A stretch of DNA of 53,880 bases, from NCBI GenBank assembly GCA_004524535.1, contig SDNY01000006.1:1-53880 (forward strand), in the 5' to 3' direction. The DNA comes from Promethearchaeota archaeon (lineage in GTDB: Archaea > Asgardarchaeota > Lokiarchaeia > Sigyniarchaeales > SOKP01). Made by a program: the position numbers and the translations under genes. Below are positions 5,484-22,000 of the stretch, piece by piece; position 1 is the first letter of the stretch, and each line of letters opens with the position of its first letter. The notes beneath the pieces were generated by a model. It was not told the origin of the DNA. It ran no database searches and saw only the letters and a list, made by a program, of their open reading frames with translations.

Positions 5484-5817
5484 TTAATAAAATAAACTTT
5501 TTTTTTTTAAAAAGAAAGATTATGAATTAAAAATAAGAATTCAATAAAAATCATTAAGATTTAAATTTGAATTTATCGCCAATATTTATTTGTAAAAAAT
5601 TTTATTAGATGCCAAATTAAATTATACTTGATCATTAATAATTTGATTAATAATTAACATTTAAAAATAACAATAAATCATTAAACAAATAAATTAAAAT
5701 TATCAATCATATCAAAAAATCAGAATTTTTACTCATAAAAGTAAAATATAATTAATTAACTTATCAAAAAACAAGAATTATTAACCACATAAATAAATTA
5801 CAGTTATCACTTAAATT

Positions 5818-5920
5818 CAGACGTAATAGCCATGCTTATAATAGCAAATTATAAGGTGGCGTTTGTATTCGAAATTATAAGTTAAGATTATAATTCGAAA
5901 TTATAAGTTGAGATTTTAAT
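5818..5920. promoter_or_regulatory. Hairpin plus 26-bp-periodic AAATTATAAG motif upstream of dnaG
   Basis: Inverted repeat GCCAT-G-CTTATAAT/ATTATAAG-GTGGC; AAATTATAAG at 5846, 5872 and 5898. Confidence 0.45.
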
Positions 5921-5975
5921 TCTGATTTTTTTTAATCAAAATATAAGAAATGTAACTAAAAAAAATCATATAGGA

Positions 5976-7148
5976 GTGATTAAGATTACAAATAGTCAGA
6001 CTGATTTTACCACTAAATATATAATCGATGCAAATTTTACAATCAAGGGCGTAGTTGAGAAATCAGATATCGTTGGAGCGGTTTTTGGCCAGACAGAAGG
6101 ACTCCTCTTAGACCTTGATTTAAGAGATCTTCAAAAATCAGGTCGAATAGGAAGGATAGAAGTAGAAAATGAATCTAAGGAAGGAATTTCCGAGGGCGTC
6201 ATCAAAATCCCTTCCAGTCTTACCCGTAAAGAAACAGCGCTACTTGCTGCGACCATAGAAACTGTATCTCGCGTAGGACCTTGTGAAGCTGAAATAAAAT
6301 TAATTGAAATTAAAGATGTCCGGGAAACAAAACGTAAGCAAATCATAGAAAGAGCAGCCGAACTATTAAAAGAATGGGATTCAAAATCTATGGAACCTTC
6401 TGAAATAGAAGAAAAAATAGATAAAGACATTAAACTTGGAGAAATAACCTCTTGGGGACCGGAAAAACTACCAGCTGGACCTGAAATTAATGATAGTTCC
6501 GAAATTATAATCGTAGAAGGGAGAGCTGATGTTTTAAATTTGCTAAGAATTGACGTTAAAAATACGGTTGCTGTTCAAGGAACAGAAATACCCAAATCAA
6601 TCATTGACTTAACAAAGAGTAAATCAACTGTAACAGCATTTTTAGATGGTGATAGAGGAGGTACAATTATCTTAAACGAGCTATTACAAATAGCTAAAAT
6701 AGATTATGTTGCAAGAGCCCCAGATGGATATGAGGTTGAGGAGCTAACGAGAAAGCAAATGATAAAAGCGCTACAAAATAAAAGGCCTATAAATAAATTA
6801 AATAAAAAAGATATGCCTAAGGATGAAAGCAAAGAAAATGCACTTAGTAATATCTTGAAAAAACTTAAAGTAAAGAACGAGGATTTAATAATTGAAGAGA
6901 TTAATAATATTAAACCTGGACAGAGCATAGGATTTAATAAAAAATTGGATAAACTTTTTGAGATGTCTGTCGGAGAAATCTTTAAAAAAATACGCGATTA
7001 TAAGGATATAACATACATAATTATTGATGGAGTGTTAACAAAACGTTTGCTTTCAATTTGCGTTAATTTAAAAATAAAATTTATAGCATGTAAAACTAAG
7101 GAAAATAAATTAAGAGTTCCAAAAAATATCTCAATTTATTTTTTTTAA
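5976..7148 (+). CDS. dnaG: Archaeal DnaG (TOPRIM, exosome-associated primase-like protein)
   Basis: GVVEKSDIVGAVFGQTEGLL, LQKSGRIGRI, IIVEGRADV, FLDGDRGG; GGAG before GTG start. Confidence 0.96.
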   Translation: MIKITNSQTDFTTKYIIDANFTIKGVVEKSDIVGAVFGQTEGLLLDLDLRDLQKSGRIGRIEVENESKEGISEGVIKIPSSLTRKETALLAATIETVSRVGPCEAEIKLIEIKDVRETKRKQIIERAAELLKEWDSKSMEPSEIEEKIDKDIKLGEITSWGPEKLPAGPEINDSSEIIIVEGRADVLNLLRIDVKNTVAVQGTEIPKSIIDLTKSKSTVTAFLDGDRGGTIILNELLQIAKIDYVARAPDGYEVEELTRKQMIKALQNKRPINKLNKKDMPKDESKENALSNILKKLKVKNEDLIIEEINNIKPGQSIGFNKKLDKLFEMSVGEIFKKIRDYKDITYIIIDGVLTKRLLSICVNLKIKFIACKTKENKLRVPKNISIYFF

Positions 7149-7235
7149 ATTAAACTTTTATATAATTTTTTAAAATAGAAAAAGATTACTTGCCGATTGG
7201 GAGAGCTACAGAAAAGATTAACTGAATAACGTAGG

Positions 7236-7463
7236 TTATTTTTCTTCATTTATTCCGTTTGTTTCGTCAATTAAAGCCTTTAATAATAAATACGCGGTTT
7301 CTCCTTTCTCGGTAAGCTCAATTGATTTATTCTTTACCTTAATCAAACCATGTTCAATCATTTGTGGTTTTACCCGATAATAAGCATTATGGTAGGATTC
7401 CTTTATTAATTCTGTAAAGAGTTCCTTTTCTTTCTTGATTTCAGGGTTATCATGAAGAATCAT
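7236..7463 (-). CDS. Small winged-helix protein (possibly a fragment)
   Basis: MIEHGLI...IELTEKG wing motif, 75 aa. Confidence 0.55.
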   Translation of the reverse strand: MILHDNPEIKKEKELFTELIKESYHNAYYRVKPQMIEHGLIKVKNKSIELTEKGETAYLLLKALIDETNGINEEK

Positions 7464-7479
7464 TTAACGTTCCCCTTCC

Positions 7480-10400
7480 GTGATCTATCCACAAAATGGG
7501 TCCTATGTATATCATATCTATGAGAATGAGGGGCTTTATCTTATTACTGCTACTATTTTTGATGGTATCATGACTACTAAAACGATGGTCCTTATTGAAG
7601 TCCTTAATAAAATACCTGAAGTATCCATCCAAAAGATGCTCAACGCCAGCCAAGATGAGGAGGTTGAGTTAGGAGATAAATTTTCATATACAGATTCTGG
7701 TTCTGATGTGGAATCATTACGGTTTTATTGGGAATTTGGCGATGGGATGTTCTCACCCTATCTCAATGTCAGTCATAAATGGTGTCAGAACGGTCTAATG
7801 CCTCTGACCTTGCATGTCATTGATGATAATGGGGCCGATGGTGCATTTACCCGCATTATAAACATCACGAATTTTGATCCCGTCATTGAAGGGCCCTTTG
7901 GATTCCAAGGAGCAGAAGGTCGAGCCATAACCCTAGAGATGGCTGTATTTGACAACTTTGGAGATGAGGTTAATTTAGACTATATGTGGGATATTGCTGG
8001 TCAGCTCATCAATGAGCCGCGCCCGACTTTATTCCTTGATGATGGGAATTATACTGCATACTTAAGTGTGAGTGATGAGAATGGCGCAGAGAGTTGCGCA
8101 AATATTACTATAATTGTCGAAGATCTTCCTCCTACTGTAACAACTACCTCTAAAATTATTTATGGCAAACCAGGTGAGATTAGTTTAAAAGCTTATGCAA
8201 TTGATTCTTATATCGATACCGATGAGATGATTTTTAATTGGAATATTAATAATGAGACCTATCATCAGCATGTTGGGGGCTTTTGGTCCGAATTAATTTA
8301 TTCATATGACAGCAACTCAATTATTACTGGGCAAGTGGAAGTTGTAGATGATGCGGGAAAAGTAGGCCACACTCTTTTTAGATTGGAAATTTATATCGAT
8401 TCTGATGGGGATGGGTTATCCGATGAGTATGAAATACAACAAGACTATTCTCCTGATTCTGACGATACTGATGGAGATTTTATAACCGATTGGTATGAAA
8501 TCTATGTCACTAATACAGATCCAGCTAATCCTGATACGGATGGCGATGGACTTCCTGATGGGTATGGATTGGTCGAAGGTCAATATTGTGGTGAATTATT
8601 ACTTGGTACTGACCCGCTAAATAGCGATACTGACAATGATAATTTAACTGATGGAGTTGAGTTCTTTGGCTGGACTATATCGACTATATGGTATGACTCT
8701 GAGACAGGAGAGCAAATTACTAAAACCTATTGGACAAATTCAGATCCTTTGTTAATTGATACGGACAAAGATTTGCTTTTTGATGATGAGGAATACGATC
8801 GCGGTACAGATCCTCGAGTAAGAGATACAGATAATGATGGAAGAGATGATTATAAGGATTATTTTCCAAATAGATATGATGGAGATGGTGATGGGCTTTC
8901 GGATAAAAAGGAAGCAAAAATGGGAACCGATCCCGGAAATCCAGATACGGATGATGATGGGCTTTCTGATGGCGAAGAATATTATCCAGGTGAAGATGGT
9001 TATATAACAGATCCAAATGATGAGGATTGCGATAATGATGGATTACTTGATGGTGAGGAATTATACACTGCAACAACAAAAATTAATAGCAGGAAAAAAA
9101 TCAGCATCGGTACTAATGAATATTCGCTTGATCTTAACGAAGGAATTCGAATGTATGCGGCTTCAGTTACTATGTCTGTTTCCGTAGGTGAGTTAAGTGA
9201 GGAATTAGCAGATCTTACTGTAGAGCTTATAGTACAGGGAATATCAATATTTGAAAAGGATTATGAAAATCAACGTTATTTAGCTGATATAACTGATGTA
9301 AAAGACTTGGTGGACAATCAAGTTGGACGATATGGTGGTAAATGGGTGCTTTATATTACTAGTAATACTGAGTGTGTTCTTGAGGAGTTTACTGTCGATG
9401 TTGTAAAATATCTTAATCCATTGAATCCTGATTTCGATGGCGATGGGATTTCTGATGGCGAAGAATATTATCCTGGTGACGATGGATGGATTACCGATCC
9501 AACCAAATATGATACTGACGGCGATTCAATCAGCGATTATGTTGAAATTGATAACGGCTGGAATCCTAATTCAGTAGACACCGACGGAGATGGGTTAGAA
9601 GATTGGCGAGATATTGATCCCCTAGGTAATGTTATAGTAGAAATAGAAGTGGACAAAGGATTGTATGATGTACCATTTCCTTACACAGCCGATCCAAGAT
9701 TGCAAGTGACCTTAGAAGTTCATACTGATACAGAACATAAATACGAATTAGCCACTCCAGATGAAAAGGCAGATGATGATGAGAAGAGATTTACCATGCC
9801 CTGGTTAGAATGGAGATGGGCTTGGCATTGTATTCCTTATTATAGCTGCCACTGGAGCTGGAGTAAGATGCGAGTGAGATGTAAACGGAAATACTTCTGT
9901 TTTAGGTTTTTGGAGCCTTATTGGACGACAATAACTATTGATAAGGTATATACAGGAGCCCATTTCGGACAGAAATATTACGTTGATGTAAATGAAGAAA
10001 AAAATAACATTCTCATTAAAGCGCAACTTTGGTTAGAAGTTTTAGGAGGGTGGACTCCCGTATCGTTCGGTGTTTATAACTATGAAGTCATGGATGGAAA
10101 TACACCAAATGAAGTATATGATGAGAAGTTATATAATATATTCGGTGGAAATAATTATGTAAAATTAGACATTCGAACAGAAAGAGTAGAACGCATCAAC
10201 ACTATTGCGATTCGTGAGTTTGATGACGAATTTAATGCAGGGACTCATTATTCACAACCCGAAAAGATGGCTGTCGTGATGTTAAATGTAAATGGTAATG
10301 ATCCATTTAGCGATTTCAATCCTGGTTTCAATGCGATTCTTATTCCTACCCGCATTTTTGTTAACACTCAACTTCATGCTTTCATTGAAAGATGCGTTGA

Positions 10401-12261
10401 TGAGAATGGAATTATCGTTATCGAGGAATGGGAGAAAATTAATGATCCTAATTCAGTATATTTTGCAATTAAGAATGCCGAAGTAAGCGGGGTTGATCGA
10501 GTAACTCTTAAAGAAGAAATTAGTCCGAATGTAGAATGTGTTATCAAAAAAGCTGTAAGTATAGACCAAGCGGAAAAAATCTTAGAACAGTTAATTTTAA
10601 CAGGTGCAGATGAGTCCGAAGGTGAAGTTTACACATATAGTCGTTCATCTCGTCCAGAGGAGTTAGGTCTTGCCCCAGATGTCTTAGCTCTTATCCCCCT
10701 ACTTGCAGCCCAATATGTTAATGATGAAGTTGGTGAGTGGCCGAGAACACCGTGGGATAACTTTATCCAATTGGTTCAAGCTGTAGTGGAGTTTATCATT
10801 GATGTATTTATAGCAATCGCGACATTTTTCGTTGAACTTGGTAATGCTATTATCGAAATCGGAATGTGCATTGCCGAAGCAATTCTAGATACAGCCATAG
10901 CATTTATTGAAATGCTATTGAAAGCTTTGGCTATGGTTCATATCTATCTTTTACTCGCATTGATTACATTTGTATTTTCAATTACATTTCCCATAATAGC
11001 TTTGAGTCTAATTAGTGTAAATAAAGATTTAGGAGGCACTGGAACATCCGATTTATTTTCTATTGATCTCAATTTCCAAGATAATGAAATTGAGTTTTTA
11101 CTTGAGTTTAAATGGCGATATGATGAGGACTTAGATTTGGATGTACCTTACATAGAAGCTTCTACTCAATTCAATGGAGAATTAGAAAATATCTTAGAGC
11201 TAGATATTATCGATTCTACGGTCCTTTCTGAAAGTTATGAATTTGGTTCAGGGGAATTTGAATCATCTATTTTATCATCTCTGAATTTAGCTTCGATTAC
11301 TAAGGAGCAAGGGAAATATCCTGAATTTCAAGTGAAAGGATCTCAACAAGCGAAAACTTTAACGAGTCTAGAATTAATGCAGATACTTGCAAACGCTCCA
11401 GATATCGTAAATCAAATAAGTGTACCATTGCAAAACACAGAAGACGAAAATTATGATTATGATAATTTATACTTTTTCGTAACAGAAGTAGTTTGGTTCC
11501 TTATTGGTTGTGTTATTTATATCTATTTAAGAATTGATTATAACTTAAAGAAGGATAAGGATTATGATTTTGATCCGCCAACCGATTATTCTGGAAATAC
11601 TTTAATTCTTGTTCATGGTTTTAATGATAAAGCTATTGCTATGGAGGAGATTTACGATGATGAGGATTATCAGGAATATTATCAGAATATAATTAATATT
11701 GAATATTATGATAATCCTGGTGATATGGGAGAAAATTTTTATATACGTACACCAATTCAAGATATTGCAGAAGCTATAGCCGAGTATATAATTGATAATG
11801 ATGAATATATATGCGATAATGTGGATTTTGTATGTCATTCTATGGGCGGTATTATTATTAGATATATGATAAAGCATTATATTGTAGATATTATTGAAGA
11901 ATATGGGGAACTAAGTAGGGAATTTTCAATCAATAATATCTGCATGTTAGGAACACCAAATCATGGTACCTGGATAGGATGGATAACGATTGGAGTGTAT
12001 CAAGGTATACAAATGAAACCAGACAGCCAATTTTTAGAAAATCTTAATGATTTTGATGAGACACCGTATTCAGAGTTGTATGACATAAAATACTATACAT
12101 ATAGAGGAGATGAAGGATACGGTCATGACGGTCTTGTTTACGCTGATTCTGTTATATTATACGAGGATGATGCTACGAATAGAGGTCCATATGATTTAGG
12201 TCATGTTGCATTACTTAAAAATAATGAGCTAAGAAGTATTATATTTGATGATCTTACTTAA
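7480..12261 (+). CDS. Giant acidic surface/secreted protein: PKD domains, Ca-binding DxDxDG repeats, hydrophobic helices, C-terminal alpha/beta hydrolase; probably 5'-truncated
   Basis: YWEFGDG (PKD); many DTDGDGLxDGxE repeats; long hydrophobic stretch near 10760-11020; lipase motifs LVHGF, CHSMGG, GTPNHG, DGLV, GH. No signal peptide. Confidence 0.8.
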   Translation: MIYPQNGSYVYHIYENEGLYLITATIFDGIMTTKTMVLIEVLNKIPEVSIQKMLNASQDEEVELGDKFSYTDSGSDVESLRFYWEFGDGMFSPYLNVSHKWCQNGLMPLTLHVIDDNGADGAFTRIINITNFDPVIEGPFGFQGAEGRAITLEMAVFDNFGDEVNLDYMWDIAGQLINEPRPTLFLDDGNYTAYLSVSDENGAESCANITIIVEDLPPTVTTTSKIIYGKPGEISLKAYAIDSYIDTDEMIFNWNINNETYHQHVGGFWSELIYSYDSNSIITGQVEVVDDAGKVGHTLFRLEIYIDSDGDGLSDEYEIQQDYSPDSDDTDGDFITDWYEIYVTNTDPANPDTDGDGLPDGYGLVEGQYCGELLLGTDPLNSDTDNDNLTDGVEFFGWTISTIWYDSETGEQITKTYWTNSDPLLIDTDKDLLFDDEEYDRGTDPRVRDTDNDGRDDYKDYFPNRYDGDGDGLSDKKEAKMGTDPGNPDTDDDGLSDGEEYYPGEDGYITDPNDEDCDNDGLLDGEELYTATTKINSRKKISIGTNEYSLDLNEGIRMYAASVTMSVSVGELSEELADLTVELIVQGISIFEKDYENQRYLADITDVKDLVDNQVGRYGGKWVLYITSNTECVLEEFTVDVVKYLNPLNPDFDGDGISDGEEYYPGDDGWITDPTKYDTDGDSISDYVEIDNGWNPNSVDTDGDGLEDWRDIDPLGNVIVEIEVDKGLYDVPFPYTADPRLQVTLEVHTDTEHKYELATPDEKADDDEKRFTMPWLEWRWAWHCIPYYSCHWSWSKMRVRCKRKYFCFRFLEPYWTTITIDKVYTGAHFGQKYYVDVNEEKNNILIKAQLWLEVLGGWTPVSFGVYNYEVMDGNTPNEVYDEKLYNIFGGNNYVKLDIRTERVERINTIAIREFDDEFNAGTHYSQPEKMAVVMLNVNGNDPFSDFNPGFNAILIPTRIFVNTQLHAFIERCVDENGIIVIEEWEKINDPNSVYFAIKNAEVSGVDRVTLKEEISPNVECVIKKAVSIDQAEKILEQLILTGADESEGEVYTYSRSSRPEELGLAPDVLALIPLLAAQYVNDEVGEWPRTPWDNFIQLVQAVVEFIIDVFIAIATFFVELGNAIIEIGMCIAEAILDTAIAFIEMLLKALAMVHIYLLLALITFVFSITFPIIALSLISVNKDLGGTGTSDLFSIDLNFQDNEIEFLLEFKWRYDEDLDLDVPYIEASTQFNGELENILELDIIDSTVLSESYEFGSGEFESSILSSLNLASITKEQGKYPEFQVKGSQQAKTLTSLELMQILANAPDIVNQISVPLQNTEDENYDYDNLYFFVTEVVWFLIGCVIYIYLRIDYNLKKDKDYDFDPPTDYSGNTLILVHGFNDKAIAMEEIYDDEDYQEYYQNIINIEYYDNPGDMGENFYIRTPIQDIAEAIAEYIIDNDEYICDNVDFVCHSMGGIIIRYMIKHYIVDIIEEYGELSREFSINNICMLGTPNHGTWIGWITIGVYQGIQMKPDSQFLENLNDFDETPYSELYDIKYYTYRGDEGYGHDGLVYADSVILYEDDATNRGPYDLGHVALLKNNELRSIIFDDLT

Positions 12262-12789
12262 CACCTTGGTTGAAATCAATTATTTAAAATTTTTTTTTCT
12301 TTTTTTCATTATGTTTTATAATAATAAGCTATAAAGATTAAATTAATAAAATTCATATTTTAATATAAGGATTTAGAGTCAAATATTAATACAAACAGTC
12401 ACAGTTTAAATAGATTTAAATATCTACTTCCTTAGAAACTTTTTATGATTTATTTTTATTATAAAATTTTAAAAGAAGTTAATCTTTAAATCTTATTAAG
12501 TTTAAAACTCTAATATTAAAAAATTAATTCTGATATTTTGTCATCTCCAAAAATTCAAAAAACAAATAAACAAACCAAAAACAAGCCACTAATAGGCTCT
12601 ACAAGATAACAAGGATTCTTTAGTTGAAGTGTGCTCCAAATAGTAAATAATAGAATGAAAAGATATTCATTAAGGTGAGAATTCTATCGGATATAAAAAA
12701 AAAATAAAGAATATTAAAAAATATACCATTAGATGCTGTTTTTAAAAAATAGTATTATTGAAAAATCAAAAAATTATAAGTAAATTAAA

Positions 12790-13347
12790 ATGCTTGAAAT
12801 AGAAAAACCTGAATCTTTTATAAAAAATATTAAAATAATTAATTTATTTTTAGGATTTATTTTAATTCAAGCTGGATTATATTATGAAATTGGACTTATC
12901 ATACGAATTTTTATAGTTCAAGGATATTTCCGAGATCCAATTATATGGGGTCTATTTGGAATACTTCTCATATCATCGGGGATAATAGGATTACTAAGTG
13001 GATTTTTTCTTTTAAAATCAAAATTTATAGGATTAAAACTAAGTATGCTTACCTTTATTATACTAAGTGGAACTTTTACATATATGGCTACTTTTACTAT
13101 TATATATACTTTTTTACATCAAATAACCGGATTATATCATTTTGCTCAAAGTGTTAGGGTTTTATTTTATACTGGAATTGTTGTATTTTCGATAATTCTC
13201 CTCTTATCAATTTATAAAAATAAAGAACTCCTTAAAGAATGTTTCTTAATAAAGACTTGTTATAATTGTCGAGCTGCATTGAAGCCTCCTTATAAATTCT
13301 GTACGAATTGTGGTTTTGAACAGAGAAGCAAAGAAAGAAAAATTTAA
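12790..13347 (+). CDS. Four-TM membrane protein with C-terminal zinc ribbon
   Basis: Four hydrophobic segments then CYNC..FCTNCG. Confidence 0.75.
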   Translation: MLEIEKPESFIKNIKIINLFLGFILIQAGLYYEIGLIIRIFIVQGYFRDPIIWGLFGILLISSGIIGLLSGFFLLKSKFIGLKLSMLTFIILSGTFTYMATFTIIYTFLHQITGLYHFAQSVRVLFYTGIVVFSIILLLSIYKNKELLKECFLIKTCYNCRAALKPPYKFCTNCGFEQRSKERKI

Positions 13348-13395
13348 TGATTTTTAAAATATATAAAAAAAGAGAAAATTAATTTAATATTTTTT

Positions 13396-16365
13396 TTAAG
13401 AGTTATTTGAATTTTGGATATTGGTGCCAATTTTATTTAGTTTTTTAATGCGTTTTTTCTTTCTCTTTCGCAATAAAATTATCGTTGCTCCAGCTGCTGC
13501 TCCTGAAATTGTTGCTCCTATAACTATTATAAAGAAAACATTATCATCCGTACCACCATCGTCATCGTCATCATCATCATCATCATCAGGGACTATAAGT
13601 AATTGCACCTTGATTGCAAGGCAATTGCTGCTACTATTACCAGAAGGATTATACGCAACAATCATGAAGTAGTGAGTTCCATCTTTATAGCCTGAGCAAT
13701 GATAGTTTAAGGTTGTTATGTTGCTCTTTAGACATTTTACTCCTGCTAAGTTTCCTATATCGCCAAATATAAATGCTTGAGTTGAGTAGTAGAGTGAATA
13801 GTTGGTAATCTCAATATTAAAATAACTATATTCTAAGGCTATGTTCCAATTCAATTTAAAGTTTCCATCATTGTCCGAGGGACTCCCTGCATTAGATGTT
13901 AATGTTAATGGTTTCGGTGCTAGGGAGACATTAATCTCTATCTGTAGTGGATATGTATAATTACCATTTCGATTGAATGAGACTAATCTAATGTACCATT
14001 TGCCATTTTGAGTAAGATATAATAAATATGTATATTCCTTATTAATATAAGAGATATTTATTCCATCAACTAGATTGATGTTAAAGACTGGCTTAGTGAA
14101 ATCTATTGGTTCTCGAGCAATGTATAATTTATAATAAGAACAATCTAAGGATTTATTCCACCAGGAGCGAACAATGCCATGAATTTCAGGATCTGTTGCA
14201 TTATTATAAAATTCAAACGGTCCAGGTGGTGCGTTAATCACCTCCACATAAATGATGTTTGAAGACCTATTTCCATTGACATTAAACGCTACAATACCAA
14301 AATAATAATCTCCATCATTAAGGTTTGAAATATGATAAATTAAATCTTTTACACCTGCAGCAATTCTAATCGAATTATTGAACTCAGTTATAGGGGCAGT
14401 ATGTTGATAGACAGAATAACTTTCAGCGTATAATGATTTGGTCCAATTCAAAGTAAAGCAACCATCTTTATCAGGAGTTAATGCATCTGATTCTAATGTG
14501 AAAGCTCCAGGAGGATATCTTTTTACATCAATTTGAATACAATTCGAGCTAGAATTTCCATTGATATTAAATGCAACTACTTTATAATAGTAAGTACCAT
14601 TTGCTAGATCAGAAAAGATATATGAGTAATTAGTAAGACCCTCATCTATTTTTATAGTATCATCAACTTCAATTATAAATGTATCATTCTGATAAAGTGA
14701 ATAATTCTGAGCATTTTGGGAGACTGTCCAATTAATAGTAAAAGAATTATTTATATTTGGAGAACCTGCATTGGTTGATAATACAAATGCTCCAGGAGGT
14801 GCCCTCTTTACTTCAACTTGAATACAATTTGAGCTTTCATTACCCCAACGATTAAAAGAAACTACTTTATAATAATACGTGCCATTTTGTTTATTATGAA
14901 AGTTATACTTTAAAGCTTTCAATCCTTCAAATTTGTTATCCAAACTATCATTCACCTCAGAAATATAGCTATTATGTTCATAGAGAGTATAATTCTCTGC
15001 TCCATCTGAATTATCCCAGTATACAGTATATGAGCCATTTAGGCTCGGACTCGTGCCATCAAGATATAAATTAAATTCTCCTGGGGTTTGAACAATTTTT
15101 ATTGTTAAAAAATAATCATATAATCCTGTAAACCGATATCCCCCTAAAATGATATTTTCCTCAGAATCTAGTGCTATATCATAAGCATATTCATCTTCAT
15201 TATCATAATCATAGGATTTATTCCAATAATTGTATCCTGTATTATTAAATTTCAGTAATATGATGTTTTCATTAGGAAATGGTAGATCGGTAGTATAATA
15301 TCCTGATAAATAAATGTCGTCAAAGGAATCAACAGCCACACCAGTATATTCTACTTTTATACCATTAGTATCGTATGTATAATTCCATTTATAGTGTCCA
15401 GTACTATTGAATTTGACAAGACATAATTCGGGAGGAGGACCTGCATCATTAAGGCGTCCAGAAACAAATACATTAAGATTAGAATCGATATCAATACTAT
15501 AAGCGTAATCCCACCACCCCCCACCCCATGTTGCATTCCATATTTGATTTCCAAGAGAATCTAGCTTTATTATAATAAAATCATCATCCGCATATGTTTC
15601 TGTATAACCACAAACATATATATCATCAGCATCATCTATGCAAATCCCATAACCGCCTTCATGATCATCGCTGGAGCCGATTGTATAATTCCATAGATAG
15701 TTCCCTGAGGCATCAAATTTAACAACAGTTAAATTTTTCCCAGATTCCCAAGCAAACAAGGGTGCTATCTCTCCAGCAACATATATATTATTGTTTGAAT
15801 CTAAAGCAATACCATATCCAATATCATGCATATCGGTTTTCCAAAGCACATCCCATTGATATATTCCTTCAGAATTGAACTTTACAATTAATAACTCATT
15901 ATTCCATGAGGTCGAATTAAAAAAAGTCCCTGTTACATATAAATTACCACTACCATCAATTGCTATATCTACACCAGAAACCTCTCCATCTAACCTATAC
16001 CATGTAGTATTCCATTGATATTCACCATTCGAATTATATTTTACGATAGCTATTGGGAACTGATTGTTGTTTGGATCGAAAGCTCCTCCCATTATATAAA
16101 CATTGTCTGATGCATCTATCACAATATCGTGTCCATAATTTGATGATTGACTTAAGGCCCATTCTTGATGCCAGTCTTCTTTAATTGAGCATTTAGGTAT
16201 CTCTATTACGGGAAGATCTTCATATCCTTCAGGATTTTTGATATTACTCTTTTTTGAATAAGCAGTATTGACATTGATATTAGAAAAATTTTGGATAAAT
16301 CCAGCTAAGAACATCATAAAGAAAAAAAATCCTAAAAGTATAATGCATTTATTTTTAGATTTCAT
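13396..16365 (-). CDS. Surface glycoprotein: SBBP-type beta-propeller, FN3-like repeats, poly-Asp linker, C-terminal TM anchor
   Basis: N-terminal signal/TM; repeats IAIDxxxNxYVxG..IVKF; repeated PPGxFxL..W..Y.LY..GxYYYKVVAFNxxG..SSNCI; D10 tract, TM, RKRKKKR. Confidence 0.85.
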   Translation of the reverse strand: MKSKNKCIILLGFFFFMMFLAGFIQNFSNINVNTAYSKKSNIKNPEGYEDLPVIEIPKCSIKEDWHQEWALSQSSNYGHDIVIDASDNVYIMGGAFDPNNNQFPIAIVKYNSNGEYQWNTTWYRLDGEVSGVDIAIDGSGNLYVTGTFFNSTSWNNELLIVKFNSEGIYQWDVLWKTDMHDIGYGIALDSNNNIYVAGEIAPLFAWESGKNLTVVKFDASGNYLWNYTIGSSDDHEGGYGICIDDADDIYVCGYTETYADDDFIIIKLDSLGNQIWNATWGGGWWDYAYSIDIDSNLNVFVSGRLNDAGPPPELCLVKFNSTGHYKWNYTYDTNGIKVEYTGVAVDSFDDIYLSGYYTTDLPFPNENIILLKFNNTGYNYWNKSYDYDNEDEYAYDIALDSEENIILGGYRFTGLYDYFLTIKIVQTPGEFNLYLDGTSPSLNGSYTVYWDNSDGAENYTLYEHNSYISEVNDSLDNKFEGLKALKYNFHNKQNGTYYYKVVSFNRWGNESSNCIQVEVKRAPPGAFVLSTNAGSPNINNSFTINWTVSQNAQNYSLYQNDTFIIEVDDTIKIDEGLTNYSYIFSDLANGTYYYKVVAFNINGNSSSNCIQIDVKRYPPGAFTLESDALTPDKDGCFTLNWTKSLYAESYSVYQHTAPITEFNNSIRIAAGVKDLIYHISNLNDGDYYFGIVAFNVNGNRSSNIIYVEVINAPPGPFEFYNNATDPEIHGIVRSWWNKSLDCSYYKLYIAREPIDFTKPVFNINLVDGINISYINKEYTYLLYLTQNGKWYIRLVSFNRNGNYTYPLQIEINVSLAPKPLTLTSNAGSPSDNDGNFKLNWNIALEYSYFNIEITNYSLYYSTQAFIFGDIGNLAGVKCLKSNITTLNYHCSGYKDGTHYFMIVAYNPSGNSSSNCLAIKVQLLIVPDDDDDDDDDDGGTDDNVFFIIVIGATISGAAAGATIILLRKRKKKRIKKLNKIGTNIQNSNNS

Positions 16366-16434
16366 TGGATTTTCATTTTAAAATAATTTATATTGGTTGA
16401 ATTTTATTTTTTTTATTTTAAATAATTTTCTTTT

Positions 16435-18459
16435 TTGTCAAATGAAAAACAAGAAAAATCTCATAGTGCTAATACTCAAAATTATTGGTATGATGATACA
16501 AGAAGTTCATTTGGAATTGATTCAAGCGTGCATCCCAAATTGGATTTTGAAGAAAAATTAGAGGAGTTTAAAGAGGAAGAAATAGAAGTGGAAATAAAAG
16601 AGCCAACTCAATCTTTGGTAAATAGTGGAAAAAAAATGGGAGGTGTTGAAAGGGTTTCAAAAGAAAAAGAACAAGAAATAATAGAATATCTTAGAGAAGA
16701 AATCGAAAAAAAAGATCCGGCTTCATTAACTCAAATTTCAAAATATTTTGGATTCAAAAGCTCAAAAACAGTAACTAGATTAGCAAAACAAATATTTACT
16801 CCAGAAATTTTTGAAGAGAAATGGGGTTCTAAGAGAGGGCAAAAAATAATGTCAGATGAAATTATATATCAGAGATTAATTGAAGAACTTAAAAAACCAA
16901 ATCCAATGTCAACAGAATCTATTGGAAAAGAATTAGGTTTTTCGGATGGAGGGCCAGTAAGACGAGTTGCAAAAGAACGAATACCAAGTGAAAATTATAA
17001 TAAGATCTGGGGTAGAGATATCATAAAAGCTACCGATATTGAGGATTTAATTATTGAACGCTTAGAAAAAGAAATAAAAAGTGAAAATCCTGCTTCTTTA
17101 AGATCAATTGGAATAGAATTCGGTTTTTCTAGTGGGAATCCAGTAAAAGAAGTAGCGATTCGTCATTTTCCTAGAGAAATATATGAAGAAGTTTGGAGTC
17201 GGCAACATCTTTCGGAGGATATGGAAGCAGATATTATAGAGATTCTCAGAGATGAAATAAAAAATGATTCTCCACGACCTTTACAAGAGATAGGTCACGA
17301 TTTTGGTTTTAAATCAGGGGATCCAATCTACAGAATTGCTAAAAAAATTTTCCCAGAAGATATTTATATGAATAAATGGGGAAGACCCTCAACATCACCA
17401 ATTATAATAAAAGAAATTGAGAATTATCTAAAAGAGCAAATTGAAAGAGAAAATCCTATGAGTCTTTCTGAAATTAGTAGAAAATTTAATCTAAAAGATT
17501 ATGGCGTAGTGAGAAGAATTGCTAAGGATCTATTTCCAGAACGAATATATCAAGAGTTATGGGGAATAGAAGAAATTCCTGAAGAAATAAAAATAGCGAT
17601 AAGAAATGATATTTTAAATACAAATTTAAGCATGAATCAGATTGCTCAGAAATTTAATATTTCGGTTGTTCCAATTCGCACGATTTCTTCAAAAATAGAA
17701 CTTGAAGATCAAGATTATAGTCATAGTGAAAGATTTCCACAGATGATCTCCGCTTTTCTTGGAACACAATTCCATCTTATTATTAAAAAAATAGTAACAA
17801 AACACCTTTTAAGATTTTTCATAAAAGCATTTTCAGAGATCTTGGTGAATATTAAAACAGAGGAAAAAATTGATCTTCTGATTCCTAATATTGATAAGGA
17901 AAAGCATTTTATTGAATTAATTAATAGTCAAAATGAATCAATAAAGGTCTTAACAAGATTAAATTTAAATATTGAAAAAATAAAGGAATTTCGAGCTTTT
18001 CTTTTTGACTTTACGATGGATCTCTCAAAAAAAAATATTATTGGAAAGATTATTAAATACCAACACCCTAATATGTTATTTTTTATTGTTGATTACAGAC
18101 GAATGGGCATTTGGCGAACTCGACCATCCCATACTTTTAATATTCCTATTGATAATAGAATAAAATTCCCCCAGACCATTAAAATTATTGATTATATCTT
18201 CTTTGCTGATCTCATTGGATTGAAAGATAGATTGAGACAACTTTTCTTCGATGCTGTTGAGCTTATTGCGGATATTATGATTCTTGAATCTGAAGAAAGA
18301 AATTATAACGACAATTTGAAAAAGTTACAGACCTATCAATTTCTAATAGAACAAGATTTATTTTATAATCAAGAATTTGAAGATTTTTTAAAGTCGCATC
18401 ATCTAAATATTAATAAATTCTTACGAGAGACGGGATCTATAGATAAATTTTTGGGTTAA
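16435..18459 (+). CDS. Protein with five 61-62-aa HTH-like repeats, a sixth degenerate HTH and a putative PD-(D/E)xK-like C-terminal domain
   Basis: Conserved Trp codons at 16822, 17008, 17194, 17377 and 17560; C-terminal GTQFH, KIDLL, FDFT, KYQ. TTG start uncertain. Confidence 0.6.
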   Translation: MSNEKQEKSHSANTQNYWYDDTRSSFGIDSSVHPKLDFEEKLEEFKEEEIEVEIKEPTQSLVNSGKKMGGVERVSKEKEQEIIEYLREEIEKKDPASLTQISKYFGFKSSKTVTRLAKQIFTPEIFEEKWGSKRGQKIMSDEIIYQRLIEELKKPNPMSTESIGKELGFSDGGPVRRVAKERIPSENYNKIWGRDIIKATDIEDLIIERLEKEIKSENPASLRSIGIEFGFSSGNPVKEVAIRHFPREIYEEVWSRQHLSEDMEADIIEILRDEIKNDSPRPLQEIGHDFGFKSGDPIYRIAKKIFPEDIYMNKWGRPSTSPIIIKEIENYLKEQIERENPMSLSEISRKFNLKDYGVVRRIAKDLFPERIYQELWGIEEIPEEIKIAIRNDILNTNLSMNQIAQKFNISVVPIRTISSKIELEDQDYSHSERFPQMISAFLGTQFHLIIKKIVTKHLLRFFIKAFSEILVNIKTEEKIDLLIPNIDKEKHFIELINSQNESIKVLTRLNLNIEKIKEFRAFLFDFTMDLSKKNIIGKIIKYQHPNMLFFIVDYRRMGIWRTRPSHTFNIPIDNRIKFPQTIKIIDYIFFADLIGLKDRLRQLFFDAVELIADIMILESEERNYNDNLKKLQTYQFLIEQDLFYNQEFEDFLKSHHLNINKFLRETGSIDKFLG

Positions 18460-18552
18460 AAATTTAACTATTTAAAAATCGACTTAAATAATAGTAAATA
18501 CTCTCTTCTATTAAATCTATTACGTAACTGATAATTAAAATATGTGGGGATT

Positions 18553-18826
18553 CTATTTACCAATAGGGAGCGCAACCGAGAAGATAAGTTGGATTACTTT
18601 CGCCAATTCAAATGATTTTTTAAATTGTATACGATAACACTCCCAACACTACAATACCAATTCCACATATTTTAAATATCAACCAATATTCTTTTCTTGA
18701 AGGTTTATTCGCTGTCTTAATAATTCTCTTTGCATTTTTTAGGAATTGGGTAAGTCTTTCATACCTTCCTGGCTTCTGTTTAGATTGATACTTAGAGTAT
18801 TTATCATATTTGGGGTAACTTGACAT
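18553..18826 (-). CDS. secE: Protein translocase SecE/Sec61-gamma, spliced: join(18629..18826,18553..18597), 80 aa
   Basis: RIIKTANKPSRKEYWLIFKICGIGIVVLGVLSY is the Sec61-gamma signature and the gene lies downstream of ftsY. Removing 18598..18628 continues in frame as VIQLIFSVALPIGK*. Confidence 0.92.
18598..18628 (-). other. 31-nt bulge-helix-bulge intron in the secE mRNA
   Basis: Outer helix GUUA/UAAU, central helix UCGU/GCGA, 3-nt bulges AU^A and AA^G, inner stem CAAUUUAAA/UUUGAAUUG. Confidence 0.88.
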
Positions 18827-18890
18827 TCTATTCTATCCAATTAATTATTTTTAAAAAATTTATCTCTTAATTAAATATAGTAGGAAAAAT

Positions 18891-19790
18891 TCAATCTAAA
18901 TCGAGTATATTTGAGATAATTAAATCGCGATTAAATACTTCTAAATCGTTATAATCTTGTCCCACACCCATGAATATAATTGGTTTTCTTGTCTCAAAAG
19001 AGATTGACAAAGCAGCTCCACCTTTAGCGTCAGCATCTAATTTTGTTAATATATTAGCATCAATACCCACGTGCTTTTTAAATTCTTTTGCTTGAAAAAG
19101 AGCGTCATTCCCAGCAAGGCTATCGCCCACAAATATGATTAAATCTGGTTGTGCCACTCGAACGATTTTTTCAAGCTCAATCATTAAGTTCTTATCACTA
19201 ACCTGCCTCCCTGCAGTATCTATAAGAACAACATCAATCCCCTTTGCTTTAGCGTGCTCAATGGTGTCGAAAGCAACAGAAGCCGGATCCGATTTATAAT
19301 CGTGTTTAATTACTCTAATATCCACATTATTCATATGATATGAAAGCTGCTCAATAGCTCCAGCTCTAAAAGTATCAGCTGCCGCCGCCACAGAGGATAT
19401 ATTTTGCTTTTTTAAATAATGGGCGATTTTTGCCATTGTAGTTGTCTTTCCCGTTCCGTTAACTCCTAAAAAAACAATCACAAAAGGAAGATTTTTTTCG
19501 ATTTTTTTTTTAATTTCTTTTAATATATCTATCTCTTCGTCAGGAGTTAGAATCTCTGTAATAATATCTTTTAAAGTTTCAAATAGCATTTTCTTTGTAG
19601 AAGAAAATCTTCCAATTTGTTCATCTTTAAATGATTCCACAATTCTGTCGCAAATCTCATCTGCGGTATCAATTGCAACATCATTACTCAAAAGAAGTAG
19701 CTTTAAATCGGTAATTGAATTAGATATTTTTTTTTCGCTTAAAGTTTTTTTGATAAAAGAAGAGAAACCTTTTTTTAATTTATCAAGCAT
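18891..19790 (-). CDS. ftsY: SRP receptor FtsY
   Basis: GVNGTGKTTT, DTFRAGAIEQL, DTAGR, TKLDADAKGG, GVGQ. Confidence 0.97.
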   Translation of the reverse strand: MLDKLKKGFSSFIKKTLSEKKISNSITDLKLLLLSNDVAIDTADEICDRIVESFKDEQIGRFSSTKKMLFETLKDIITEILTPDEEIDILKEIKKKIEKNLPFVIVFLGVNGTGKTTTMAKIAHYLKKQNISSVAAAADTFRAGAIEQLSYHMNNVDIRVIKHDYKSDPASVAFDTIEHAKAKGIDVVLIDTAGRQVSDKNLMIELEKIVRVAQPDLIIFVGDSLAGNDALFQAKEFKKHVGIDANILTKLDADAKGGAALSISFETRKPIIFMGVGQDYNDLEVFNRDLIISNILDLD

Positions 19791-19842
19791 TAATTATATC
19801 ACATGAAATGAATTATATTTGAATTTACCTTGATTAAATTAA

Positions 19843-20262
19843 TTATCGTTGCTGAAAACCGCTTCTCTGAAAAGCCATTGACATATTTTGAAGGTTTAAA
19901 TCCAAATTTTGTATCTGGGTTCTTAAAAATTGCAATTGTTCATTGTGCTGTCCAATAATCTTATCAACAAATTCTATTGAATTATCTAAATCTTTTTCAA
20001 TCACAACGTCTTGTGAAATATAAAGTTGAATTTTTTTAGGATTCTTGATTGTAGCATAAATATTAATTAATCCGCCTATTGGGATTAAAATCTCTTCGCC
20101 TTCTTTAACAGTCTTTAAATTTTCTATGGTCTCTTTAGTATTCCGAAAATTATTAAGAGATACATTTACAAACTCTAGTTGATTAGCGAACATATCCCTT
20201 TGATCTTTTAAATACTTAAATTGATATAATAAAGCTTGTTTATTTTCTTGAGGATTTTCCAT
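19843..20262 (-). CDS. pfdA: Prefoldin alpha subunit
   Basis: Coiled coil, EILIPIGG hairpins, coiled coil; conserved position between rplX and ftsY. Confidence 0.9.
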   Translation of the reverse strand: MENPQENKQALLYQFKYLKDQRDMFANQLEFVNVSLNNFRNTKETIENLKTVKEGEEILIPIGGLINIYATIKNPKKIQLYISQDVVIEKDLDNSIEFVDKIIGQHNEQLQFLRTQIQNLDLNLQNMSMAFQRSGFQQR

Positions 20263-20293
20263 ATTTTTTCACTCAGATTGAGTTAATTATAAT

Positions 20294-20524
20294 CTATTGA
20301 GATAATTCACGTATAAGATGATCTTGACTTTCTTCTGCTGTAATTTCCTTTATTTCTTCAATTTTAATTTGTCGCCTATAAATACCTATAGATGTTATTT
20401 GTGATAATGCTTTTTCGAGAGCATCTTTTTCTTTAAGCGCACGGATTTCCTTTCTAAAAAGGTATTTTTTTTGTTTTCTAGTGTAAGTACCGATTATTTG
20501 ATATATTTTTATCTCAGATGACAT
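20294..20524 (-). CDS. rpl18a: 50S ribosomal protein L18Ae/LX (eL20)
   Basis: KIYQIIG..FRKEIRAL..R.QIKIEEIKEI; synteny. Confidence 0.88.
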   Translation of the reverse strand: MSSEIKIYQIIGTYTRKQKKYLFRKEIRALKEKDALEKALSQITSIGIYRRQIKIEEIKEITAEESQDHLIRELSQ

Positions 20525-20596
20525 AATTATTTGGTAAAATCATTTAAAAATTATTAAATTTTGCTTTTTTTTAGATTTAAGAGAAAATTACGTCTT

Positions 20597-21280
20597 TTAG
20601 AGCTTTAGAACGGATGTAAGCCTCATTAATTCTGGTCCAGTTGAATCCATGCCAAAAATCCCACTTTTATCATTAACTATCGCACCCGCACTAAGATATG
20701 GAATACCTCGATTGATGGTGCTTACATCAGTTTCCACTTTTAAGATTGATGAGATCTTCTCAATTTCATCGTCATTAGCAAGAGGATGGACTAAACAGCC
20801 GTTATTATTTGCTATGGATATTGAACCTGGAAGAGAAGAGCCTGCAAATTCAAATACTTCAGTTTCAATATTTAAAATATCTTCTATTTGTTTTCTATAA
20901 TCTTTTAAAAATGAGCTAATAATTGCACCCTTATCGTTGCAAAGTATTAGGTTTCCAAATGCATTATCTAAGGAATTGAGAATTCCGATTTGAGTTAACT
21001 CTCCAATATTTGATTTCAGCACGTTAAATTCATCTTCCTTTATGATATTTGGTACTATAATTCCGTATTTGTTTGATGCAGTGTATATTCCTAATAGATT
21101 AGAATTGTTTATAGTTAAAGGAAATAACGGTTCGTTAAAAACTGATTTGAACTTTTTAAGTATTGGTTTTAATAGAAGATGAGGATATAAAACATATGAA
21201 TTATTTGCTGCTAAATAAACGCCTATTAAATTATTTCCAAAAACTTGAGCTTTAAGAATAGACAACGATTTAATTTCCAC
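20597..21280 (-). CDS. eif6: Translation initiation factor 6 (aIF6)
   Basis: Pentein repeats GNLILCNDKGA, GCLVHP, TINRG, TGPEL. The true start may be the downstream TTG (MSILK). Confidence 0.94.
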   Translation of the reverse strand: MEIKSLSILKAQVFGNNLIGVYLAANNSYVLYPHLLLKPILKKFKSVFNEPLFPLTINNSNLLGIYTASNKYGIIVPNIIKEDEFNVLKSNIGELTQIGILNSLDNAFGNLILCNDKGAIISSFLKDYRKQIEDILNIETEVFEFAGSSLPGSISIANNNGCLVHPLANDDEIEKISSILKVETDVSTINRGIPYLSAGAIVNDKSGIFGMDSTGPELMRLTSVLKL

Positions 21281-21315
21281 CGAAACTATATTTTAAAAGT
21301 AGTAAAGTTATAATC

Positions 21316-21980: not shown

Positions 21981-22000
21981 AATATAATTTTCATCTCTCT

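Follow-up and report, generated by a model that had tools for sequence, protein, structure and literature searches.

In the accessible parts of the published reports, splicing of a coding region by the archaeal tRNA machinery has been confirmed for cbf5 only, together with one 5'UTR of Haloferax (PMC7714728, PMC2738675). The cbf5 pre-mRNA of Crenarchaeota carries a BHB-type intron of 16–44 bp within its coding sequence, which depends on a heteromeric EndA (Watanabe 2002; Yoshinari 2006; Yokobori 2009; PMC2738675, PMC7714728), and the HVO_1309 mRNA of Haloferax volcanii contains a BHB intron in its 5'UTR, as demonstrated in vivo and in vitro (PMC7714728). For Asgard tRNA genes, recurrent and recent gains of BHB introns have been described, many of them on terminal branches, and the accessible text of that study reports no general route of arrival (bioRxiv 10.64898/2026.10.13.758758). 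Here, we describe a 31-nt insert in the single secE gene of an Asgard genome, found within the window, that is, the whole 53,880-nt stretch of DNA that we analyzed. Judging from its sequence and geometry, the insert is probably an archaeal BHB (tRNA-type) intron that interrupts the coding sequence and would be removed by splicing.

The secE insert resembles the cbf5 intron in being short, of BHB type, paired with an apparently heteromeric endonuclease and placed such that it breaks the reading frame within a key region of the protein; both are easily miscalled as a frameshift or truncation. The two differ in the gene concerned (secE, not cbf5) and in the host (Asgard, not Crenarchaeota). Moreover, the cbf5 intron is ancient and common to orders, whereas the secE intron occurs in one species-level genome among those searched, adopts a strict hBHBh' motif and lies, together with its 3' exon, on inserted DNA, with the native 3' exon 11.4 kb away; its splicing is a prediction. 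As for HVO_1309, the predicted substrate of the tRNA splicing endonuclease is an mRNA, but the Haloferax intron belongs to a euryarchaeon and occupies an untranslated leader, with no reading frame depending on it. With the Asgard tRNA introns, the insert shares lineage, machinery, a similar size and the canonical BHB, and turnover is visible in the window itself, where the tRNA at 38839-38942 carries private 29- and 30-nt inserts relative to the closest genome, G008. There, however, the substrate is tRNA, and the words 'mRNA' and 'secE' do not occur in the accessible part of that text, whereas the arrival route of the secE intron can be seen. A further parallel is HAC1/XBP1, in which Ire1 excises a short mRNA intron by way of stem-loops and a tRNA ligase (RtcB in animals) joins the exons, creating a new C-terminus. 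The short mRNA intron, the stem-loop-reading endonuclease, the tRNA ligase, the change of frame and the new C-terminus are common to both systems, but Ire1 is not EndA, and HAC1/XBP1 splicing is a regulated stress response with no tie to inserted DNA. RtcB and XBP-1 are named together in the accessible part of PMC8718801. Our literature search, which covered the accessible main texts, returned no prior report of an archaeal secE intron cut by the splicing endonuclease; the present genome could still be among those in the supplements to the tRNA-intron preprint. Among the texts searched, the kind of intron is already known from cbf5, and the novelty lies in which gene and phylum carry it and in how it arrived. 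If true, a second such gene would imply that the tRNA machinery can police coding sequences more widely; the gene in question encodes an essential translocon subunit, and its host belongs to the archaea closest to eukaryotes. It also carries a warning, as gene callers may truncate essential genes in such genomes.

The interrupted gene is made up of the following parts:

18826..18553, minus strand: the whole secE gene, interrupted (open reading frame, translation and family profiles)
18629..18826, minus strand: secE exon 1, codons 1-66, ending in ...LGVLSY (open reading frame, translation and SecE profile matches)
18598..18628, minus strand: predicted BHB intron of 31 nt, read through from exon 1 as T-I-stop (alignment gap)
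18553..18597, minus strand: secE exon 2, 14 codons (VIQLIFSVALPIGK) and a TAG stop, shifted by +1 from the exon-1 frame (translation)

The original prediction had noted that secE stops early and that a hydrophobic tail follows 31 nt later in another frame, and both observations hold. The minus-strand open reading frame 18620..18826 encodes 68 aa with the C-terminus ...LGVLSYTI*, and 18597..18553 translates in the +1 frame to VIQLIFSVALPIGK*. The 68-aa product scores 24.7 bits against Pfam PF00584 (cut-off 22.7) and 44 bits against TIGR00327 (cut-off 36.2). As the latter match reaches from position 4 no further than position 49 of the 61-position profile, the C-terminus of SecE is absent from this product, the truncated helix of which retains about 21 hydrophobic residues. 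Neighboring genes encode a prefoldin and an SRP54-type GTPase, the latter FtsY-like by our reading. In an alignment of 20 relatives, I68, Q69, L70 and I71 are among the nearly invariant columns, and all four are supplied by exon 2. Joining the exons in frame is predicted to yield an 80-aa SecE with the genus-typical tail, identical to that of the closest relative. The expectation that intronless relatives have a contiguous secE was borne out at 112 of 112 loci, all of them lacking the insert. Among the 150 entries listed in a phylum-wide survey, the genome's own secE is the only interrupted one, and no second intron-bearing secE was found among the genomes examined.

The insert and its flanks can be arranged as an hBHBh' motif:

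18593..18638, minus strand: hBHBh' motif overall (sequence, genome scan and constrained fold)
18638-18635 / 18596-18593, minus strand: h, the exon-exon helix, 4 bp, GUUA/UAAU
18634-18631 / 18603-18600, minus strand: H, the central helix, 4 bp, UCGU/GCGA, with one G.U pair
18630-18628 and 18599-18597, minus strand: two 3-nt bulges, AUA and AAG
18627-18619 / 18612-18604, minus strand: h', the intron helix, 9 bp, with a 6-nt loop at 18618-18613

Sequence, genome scan and constrained fold agree with the helices, bulges and 9-bp stem described earlier, and extra exon-exon pairing extends outside h and h'. If each bulge is cut 3' of its second nucleotide, exactly 18598..18628 is removed and the 80-aa frame is left, and a MAFFT alignment with seven same-genus secE genes independently places a 31-nt gap at identical borders (TAT|...|GTA). 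The same cut geometry exactly reproduces the 28-nt canonical tRNA-Pro intron called by ARAGORN on contig C118. Scanning the whole genome on both strands for lengths of 12-200, about 1.38e9 position/length combinations, yielded 147,543 raw BHB motifs, and the secE entry reads a=35246, D=31, h=4, h'=9 with one G.U in H. Motifs with h+h' of at least 13 number 1,197 in these combinations, about 9e-7 each. The 31 nt are unique within their own genome. When the intron was held fixed and the exon flanks were synonymously resampled, a 4-bp H together with an h of at least 4 bp was kept in 50 of 5,000 cases, and the exon flanks that build H and h use rare codons (TCG, 7% of Ser codons; GTG and TTG, 12% each). 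The enzymes are encoded as well: the genome has two EndA genes (PF01974; contigs C100 and C84), both above cut-off and each with N and C domains, and one RtcB gene (PF01139; contig C101). Two EndA genes fit the (alpha-beta)2 type of enzyme, the type reported for Asgard EndA in the accessible part of PMC5829648. The locus and its genome combine the central helix and its bulges, flanking helices, matching insert borders, a predicted in-frame product and the enzymes of a BHB intron.

We propose that exon-1 bases (GUUA, UCGU, AU) and exon-2 bases (G, UAAU) would form base pairs between the exons as well as with intron bases, such that the strict hBHBh' would sit atop a longer stem formed by exon 1 and the new 3'UTR. 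A heteromeric EndA would cut after base 2 of each 3-nt bulge, and RtcB would ligate UAU|GUA. We infer cleavage and ligation, and the need for both, from these features: the spliced mRNA would encode the 80-aa SecE, the unspliced one a 68-aa product that lacks the best-conserved stretch of its membrane helix. Because a tRNA-intron-like insert interrupts secE, splicing is probably required for the full protein. The original claim that an Asgard archaeon splices its secE mRNA is thus backed by geometry, borders, frame, the EndA and RtcB genes and independent DNA, with splicing itself deduced, but it had missed the origin on an inserted segment. Among the points that speak against splicing are that ribosomes trailing the polymerase would be expected to reach the in-frame TAA of the intron before exon 2 is transcribed, and that this is a single case.

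As to the splicing machinery, and in its favor, ARAGORN finds only 9 uninterrupted tRNAs in the 99%-complete genome. A proposed genome scan for BHB motifs at frame breaks gave no excess over frame-shifted decoys (e.g. 39 vs 32, 21, 21, 31). Searching for the signature of the locus, i.e. a BHB, a short last exon and a second downstream copy of the exon, reduced 2,376 cases to secE and 36 others, and these 36 resemble ordinary repeats whose motifs are long and weak. Across the window, the other inserts relative to G008 (at 4858, 38867, 39125 and 46787) contain no strict BHB, and the one at 5420 has a weak match only.

Comparison with G008 places secE at the edge of a large insertion:

7236..18652, no strand assigned: segment of about 11.4 kb with no counterpart in G008, the closest genome (synteny and identity break)
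7186..7235, minus strand: displaced native secE tail, comprising CC-TAC, codons 67-80 and TAA, followed by a G008-like downstream flank
7236..7463, minus strand: winged-helix protein of 75 aa, the stop codon of which abuts the displaced tail (weak wHTH and transcription-regulator matches)
7480..16365, no single strand: cargo, three open reading frames
16435..18459, plus strand: 674-aa protein, HTH repeats at the N-terminus and a conserved domain at the C-terminus, convergent on secE

Window positions 3185-7238 correspond to G008 contig C8 79329-75340, and 18630-24377 to 75346-69586. Within secE, identity to G008 is 96% up to codon 58 and breaks at codon 58/59; codon by codon, exon 1 is native-like over codons 1-58 and recoded over codons 59-66 (18629..18652). 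At its secE edge the segment carries the intron and the synonymously recoded codons 59-80, and it contains five open reading frames besides. Exon 2 encodes exactly the amino acids found at the end of G008 SecE, yet it uses a different codon at 12 of 14 sense positions (13 nt) and a different stop codon. The native tail is found at the far end of the segment, where blastn against G008 gives 97.1% identity over 70 nt (7238..7169) for the displaced tail and, for the flank downstream of it, 97.4% in an alignment of 1466 columns. Measured against G008, the intron and exon 2 are evidently not native and came on the segment, and the insertion is recent, the native remnant still being 97% identical to its counterpart. 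Because of this recency, the intactness of exon 2 is no proof of selection after the event. In our model, the intron was not gained in place but arrived with the recoded codons 59-80 at the edge of a foreign segment that broke native secE at codon 65/66, shifting the native tail by 11.4 kb. An intronless sister with 96% identity as far as codon 58, together with the surviving displaced native exon, documents the arrival of the intron with foreign DNA. This is the kind of route that the Asgard tRNA-intron census left open, in a case caught unusually early.

The cargo frames encode a 1593-aa protein with PKD, TSP3 and lipase-like matches and a 185-aa protein, both on the plus strand, and a 989-aa protein with beta-propeller repeats and Ig-like matches on the minus strand. 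Some integrative elements bring along a substitute for the 3' end of the gene they enter. The secE locus is like such gene-repairing mobile DNA in its native 3' end kept as a remnant, its incoming replacement and its recoded flank, but its segment lacks an integrase and an att repeat beyond an imperfect 7-mer. In domain searches not specific to Tn7, the five segment frames of at least 70 aa show no integrase, transposase, recombinase or defence domain, and a search for att direct repeats at the junctions returned only the imperfect 7-nt pair TATCGTA / TAACCTA. With neither a tyrosine/serine recombinase nor an att-type repeat, an integrase-mediated integrative element is not supported. The idea that the 9-6-9 palindrome is a recombinase core site was rejected, there being no second copy at the other junction. 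The accessible text of an Asgard Tn7 preprint does not mention secE. Searches for a donor gave no match over the exon/intron part when DNA 17900-18660 was compared with 134 family genomes, and no exact match in viral contigs; the nearest of 102 secE tails shares only 73% DNA identity with codons 59-80.

We next consider RNA folding, for which a pair of inverted-repeat arms is relevant:

18663..18681, minus strand: 19-nt inverted-repeat arm in native exon 1, codons ~48-54 (repeat search, 95% complementary)
18529..18547, minus strand: its counterpart within the new 3'UTR, 6 nt past the TAG (repeat search and folding)

The 3'UTR arm is an 18/19 inverted copy of exon 1, with 115 nt separating the arms, and their pairing is predicted to close a 171-nt structured domain around the BHB. 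Such repeats (at least 18/19, spacer 20-200) occur only twice in the 3.66-Mb genome, secE's included. They are not MITE ends, since one arm is conserved native coding sequence that is also present in G008. The 171-nt domain is strongly structured (minimum free energy -42.4 kcal/mol, z -3.81, 0 of 200 shuffles), whereas its intronless counterpart in G008 has a z of +0.89; the 81-nt fold is unremarkable (z -1.30, 20 of 200 shuffles as stable or more). In neither prediction do the energy models favor the BHB: for 81 nt the canonical BHB reaches -9.3 against a minimum of -14.5 kcal/mol, and for 171 nt the forced BHB reaches -36.5 kcal/mol against the minimum. Protein binding could select the BHB over the minimum-energy fold. 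The energy observed for the recoded sequence was reached by 63 of 1,500 codon-usage and 238 of 1,500 uniform resamples, a faint hint that structure may have driven the recoding.

That the BHB is not the fold of minimum energy is one reason to ask whether the insert is an unspliced scar, in a cell that lives with the 68-aa SecE, exon 2 being an undecayed donor relic and the BHB-like fold a by-product of a palindromic end. A recent event, with a remnant 97% identical to G008, would not yet be expected to show decay, a genome-wide class of such introns is missing, and with the hydrophobic residues left in its helix the 68-aa product might still enter the membrane. Such a scar would nevertheless need a coincidence of ~1e-6 to place a strict BHB that cuts at the insert borders and restores the frame. 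The truncation would also delete the nearly invariant IQLI, and it would leave to chance the rare codons that build H and h, which few of the resamples matched. We therefore consider this explanation distinctly unlikely. Competing folds within about 5-6 kcal/mol of the BHB would also suit a second alternative, in which EndA cuts but ligation is inefficient or conditional, so that the element mainly controls SecE dosage or mRNA stability, as a switch or a brake, and both truncated and full-length SecE are made. Regulatory roles have been proposed for the cbf5 intron (PMC2738675) and the 5'UTR intron of HVO_1309 (PMC7714728), according to the accessible parts of these reports; yet the secE intron, being recent and confined to one species, is unlikely to have evolved a regulatory role, and we rate this alternative as quite improbable.

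Translational recoding, in which a +1 frameshift or a ribosome hop would link the frames without RNA splicing, has in its favor that the exon-2 frame is open through the insert (...KKSFELAK-VIQLIF) and that cbf5 introns were once taken for frameshift sites, as stated in the accessible part of PMC2738675. A +1 shift would, however, interrupt the membrane helix midway with 10 residues, some of them charged, in a predicted 90-aa product, and inspection by eye found no frameshift motif. For a hop, the insert lacks matching take-off and landing codons on its flanks; the rules of bypassing are reportedly known from phage T4 gene 60. Recoding is hence very improbable. That the 31 nt or the junction of secE and segment are absent from any cell, an artefact of assembly or binning as might befall a metagenome assembly of 198 contigs (3.66 Mb, 99% complete, 4.4% estimated contamination), is hardly conceivable, as two separately assembled contigs cross the junction and contain the 31 nt, one of 8,119 nt in the Logan assembly of a possible source run (0 differences over 18200-19200) and one of 1,942 nt from the independent study X2 (over 18200-18680, 3 differences, 0 gaps).

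One variant of the X2 contig, listed at 18559, is synonymous in the spliced frame. Contigs of four runs, all DNA, showed no joints and no indels against the locus, and the 24 runs listed for it are DNA or metagenome entries, none RNA, which say nothing on expression. In X5 and X7, no contig covers 18472-18607. Contigs of a G008-like relative in X2, X5 and X7 diverge at 18633 into the intronless sequence, and the three secE loci recovered in a metagenome scan are all intronless.

Returning to splicing as the preferred reading, the anatomy of the segment suggests a bolder version, in which the intron would mark the seam of an insertion that repairs itself. At the edge of the segment, the recoded codons, the 31-nt splice-signal piece, the replacement last exon and the 3'UTR arm that clamps exon 1 would together form a self-repair cassette, by means of which host tRNA-splicing enzymes would erase the damage of insertion in the RNA. 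Taken furthest, the neighboring 674-aa HTH-repeat protein would be a site-specific nuclease that cuts intronless secE, and the recoded, intron-split allele would be immune and spread by repair. In 'collaborative homing', an intron spreads together with a homing endonuclease that is free-standing; if the scheme is true, secE would be an instance with a BHB intron, not a group I intron, and with the 674-aa neighbor as a putative nuclease. It would also reveal a concrete path to intron gain from mobile DNA in the protein-coding genes of those archaea that stand closest to eukaryotes. Taken as a whole, this scheme is speculative and we regard it as unlikely. The 674-aa protein may serve as a lead, as a candidate mobile-element gene. 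Pfam matches to it are HTH and confined to the N-terminus; the C-terminal domain, in this protein or its relatives, has no Pfam match and no PDB sequence match (phmmer/hmmsearch), and PHROGs and PADLOC return nothing for the protein. A homologous-protein search yielded 4 proteins. No relatives were found in viral contigs or in other same-genus genomes. Elsewhere, relatives adjoin rpS4e and a VWA_CoxE gene at their 3' ends; no displaced gene tails were found at these sites, one contig having ended and one extra 1.9 kb being blank. The relatives are patchy and multi-copy, occurring in 29 of 134 family genomes (this one included) with up to 6 matches per genome. Atlas look-alikes of the protein include PD-(D/E)XK nucleases (Mrr_cat, Hjc and CoiA_nuc clusters), all sub-threshold, and the family has invariant H, E, D, K and KYQ columns.

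The 68-aa product of secE scored above the curated thresholds of both Pfam SecE and TIGR00327, the latter match being limited to profile positions 4-49 out of 61. As the original prediction had claimed, the frame stops early and the missing tail lies in another frame, with VIQLIFSVALPIGK* being translated in the +1 frame 31 bases farther along. The IQLI residues are nearly invariant and absent from the truncated SecE. Upstream on the same strand lie a prefoldin gene and an SRP54-type GTPase gene, which we read as FtsY-like. The features of the locus are:

18620..18826, minus strand: secE ORF of 68 aa, ending ...LGVLSYTI*
18597..18553, minus strand: +1 frame encoding VIQLIFSVALPIGK* (exon 2)
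18638-18635 and 18596-18593, minus strand: outer helix h of the bulge-helix-bulge motif (BHB), GUUA/UAAU in the transcript
18634-18631 and 18603-18600, minus strand: central helix H, UCGU/GCGA
Between the H strands, minus strand: inner stem h', CAAUUUAAA/UUUGAAUUG
Flanking H, minus strand: bulges AUA and AAG, 3 nt each, on opposite strands

In a DNA alignment of eight same-genus secE genes, all seven others showed a single 31-nt gap between TAT and GTA, corresponding to 18598..18628. The predicted BHB geometry and cut rule held, as cutting after the second base of each bulge excises exactly these 31 nt. Scanning the whole genome for this geometry on both strands, at lengths of 12-200, returned 147,543 raw matches; 1,197 of them had h+h' of at least 13, as in secE, per ~1.38e9 position/length combinations (~9e-7 each). 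The same geometry recovered a canonical 28-nt tRNA-Pro intron called by ARAGORN on contig C118, with identical start and length. When the exon flanks were redrawn with synonymous codons according to the genome's own usage, holding the intron fixed, a 4-bp H with h of at least 4 bp was kept in 50 of 5,000 redraws. TCG, GTG and TTG are among the rare codons present in the real flanks.

Among relatives, secE was present in 37 of 40 genomes searched. In all 29 loci returned, the protein ran on unbroken through ...SY[VI]IQLIF..., and homologues naturally ending at SYTI, a possibility raised with the original prediction, were not among them. The closest relative (G008, 94% identical) has a SecE ending ...VVSYVIQLIFSVALPIGK*. 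Adding three metagenome loci and 80 from genome contigs gave 112 relatives' loci, some sharing a genome, and each was contiguous across the intron site (105 by pattern, 7 by eye), as expected for intronless relatives; one added set is biased, as one of its two search patterns spans the junction. A profile search across the phylum identified secE in 381 of the 399 genomes (386 matches), and among the 150 matches listed only that of the present genome had internal stops. Four other listed matches showed one stop, which lay outside the gene in the three that were fetched; the fourth was contiguous.

Comparison with G008 revealed 95.9% identity over 1,697 nt, ending at the intron border. Within secE the shift is abrupt: codons 1-58 differ at 6 nt, and across codons 59-81 the differences affect 20 of the 23 codons (21 of 69 nt) and a single amino acid; directly downstream of secE, the two genomes share no similarity. 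A G008-type tail (CC-TAC, codons 67-80, TAA) with its downstream flank was located at 7238..5724 with 97% identity, and by synteny 3185-7238 and 18630-24377 abut in G008. The displaced tail and the synteny thus indicate that ~11.4 kb (7236..18652) inserted into secE and displaced its native tail, the remnant of which begins 5 nt before the position equivalent to the 5' splice site. Codons 59-66, together with the intron and exon 2, come from the incoming DNA. None of 102 secE tails exceeds 73% DNA identity to the replacement tail, although its amino acids are genus-typical; neither 134 family genomes nor viral contigs yielded a donor. The insertion junctions have nothing in common except an imperfect 7-mer. 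The segment encodes proteins of 75 aa (wHTH), 1593 aa (PKD/TSP3/lipase-like), 185 aa, 989 aa (beta-propeller/Ig) and 674 aa (HTH-repeat), among which no integrase or transposase domain was detected.

We consider it likely, on this sequence evidence, that secE carries a BHB intron that arrived with a replacement exon on foreign DNA and is removed by the host splicing endonuclease EndA and the ligase RtcB, restoring an essential protein. The main rival, an unspliced scar leaving a truncated SecE, appears improbable: it requires a coincidence of ~1e-6 and forfeits the IQLI residues. Against this, the event is so recent that nothing can be concluded from exon 2 being intact. Partial or regulatory processing and translational recoding are minor alternatives. 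An artefact is likewise a minor alternative when contigs from four DNA runs are compared over 18200-19200: an 8,119-nt contig from the possible source run showed zero differences, and a 1,942-nt contig from another study (run X2; 18200-18680) had 3 differences and no gap, which places the insert in a second, independent sample. A search for sequencing runs containing the locus turned up no RNA run. The one X2 difference listed, 18559 A>G, is synonymous in the exon-2 frame (GGT>GGC). X2 and two further runs, X5 and X7, additionally contain a G008-like relative whose junction is intronless.

A genome-wide scan, as proposed with the original prediction, showed that the secE case is not one of many. 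With h+h' of at least 12 and at least 60 upstream and 40 downstream codons, 39 frame-restoring motifs compared with 32, 21, 21 and 31 decoys (3' cut moved 1 or 2 nt), which is no excess, and when the genome was searched for the complete signature, secE was the sole convincing case. As excerpted from PMC7714728, cbf5 was as of 2020 the sole reported mRNA intron besides a 5'UTR intron that the study itself described; according to PMC2738675, introns of cbf5 measure 16-44 bp, and pre-mRNA splicing was unconfirmed for other genes. In the accessible text of a 2026 preprint on Asgard tRNA introns (bioRxiv 10.64898/2026.10.13.758758), 'mRNA' and 'secE' are absent, and its abstract calls the introns' manner of arrival unknown. 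Our literature search, which covered sources other than subscription journals and supplements, found introns reported neither for secE nor for any Asgard protein-coding gene.

Folding of 171 nt around the intron (18700..18530) gave -42.4 kcal/mol (z -3.81), matched by 0 of 200 shuffles, vs an ordinary fold for the intronless G008 equivalent (z +0.89). Chief among the contributors is a 19-nt inverted repeat (18/19) pairing native exon 1 (18663-18681) with the new 3'UTR (18529-18547), one of just two of that quality in the genome (66 reach 17/19). In the minimum-energy fold, H gives way to a different pairing; a forced BHB is 5.9 kcal/mol less favourable, with the outer stems unmoved. In 81 nt, the canonical BHB reached -9.3 vs -14.5 for the minimum-energy fold, which is itself unremarkable (z -1.30). 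When the recoded codons were resampled synonymously, 63 of 1,500 draws following codon usage and 238 of 1,500 uniform draws attained the observed energy; RNA structure is only a weak explanation of the recoding. By analogy, the long stem may resemble those processing stems of rRNA precursors on which BHB motifs are presented.

The genome encodes one RtcB and two EndA paralogues:

Contig C100, 31106-31336: EndA, 201 aa, N- and C-terminal domains
Contig C84, 30615-30863: EndA, 201 aa, N- and C-terminal domains

A section of PMC5829648 ascribes to Asgard archaea the (alpha-beta)2 type with the L1 insert. On visual inspection, the catalytic histidine appears to be missing from the C84 copy, which would fit a structural beta subunit. 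In this genome, which is 99% complete, ARAGORN found just 9 tRNA genes free of interruption and made 22 calls with introns allowed, several of them spurious, their 'introns' being kb-long; the majority of tRNA genes must carry interruptions at positions that ARAGORN cannot handle. A minus-strand tRNA gene at 38839-38942 (Rfam, 49.4 bits) has a 29-nt insert at 38867 missing in G008, whose own 30-nt insert at 38920 is missing here. Each genome thus appears to hold a private intron in the same gene, and BHB-size inserts turn over between the two. The 29-nt insert had no match in the strict BHB scan and may have a relaxed form. Directly upstream, in unannotated DNA, a 31-nt insert absent from G008 (39125-39155) had neither an Rfam match at the gathering score nor a strict BHB.

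The 674-aa protein gene ends 70 nt from an inverted-repeat arm. Relatives (at most 36% identity) occur in 29 of 134 family genomes, including this one, with up to 6 matches per genome and none in other same-genus genomes. In the C-terminal domain, H, E, D, K and KYQ columns are invariant, and sequence searches with it gave zero matches; protein-atlas look-alikes of the protein, all below threshold, include PD-(D/E)XK nuclease clusters. Two relatives lie tail-to-tail with conserved genes:

L136, genome G239, contig C97, 958-3777: 61 nt from ribosomal protein S4e
L137, genome G018, contig C47: 4 nt from a VWA_CoxE gene

By similarity, L140 also converges on the rpS4e 3' end, and L138 and L141 on that of VWA_CoxE. 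The family seems to settle beside 3' ends of conserved genes; no displaced gene tails were found beside the rpS4e or VWA_CoxE relatives, and the picture of the 674-aa protein is a lead rather than a finding.

Elsewhere in the window, 1394-2288, 28014-29589, 34237-36125 and 39195-41589 also have no counterpart in the syntenic G008 contig, and strain-specific segments are frequent across the 54 kb. Both 24418-25638 and 25640-28014 align to the same G008 stretch (68368-65953), which indicates a tandem duplication of ~1.2 kb at 24418-28014, beside a tRNA-Gly (24256-24327). A 40-nt insert absent from G008 at 5420-5459, holding a tandem CAATCATCCACC repeat and overlapping a weak candidate for a BHB (h 4, h' 4), probably arose by replication slippage.
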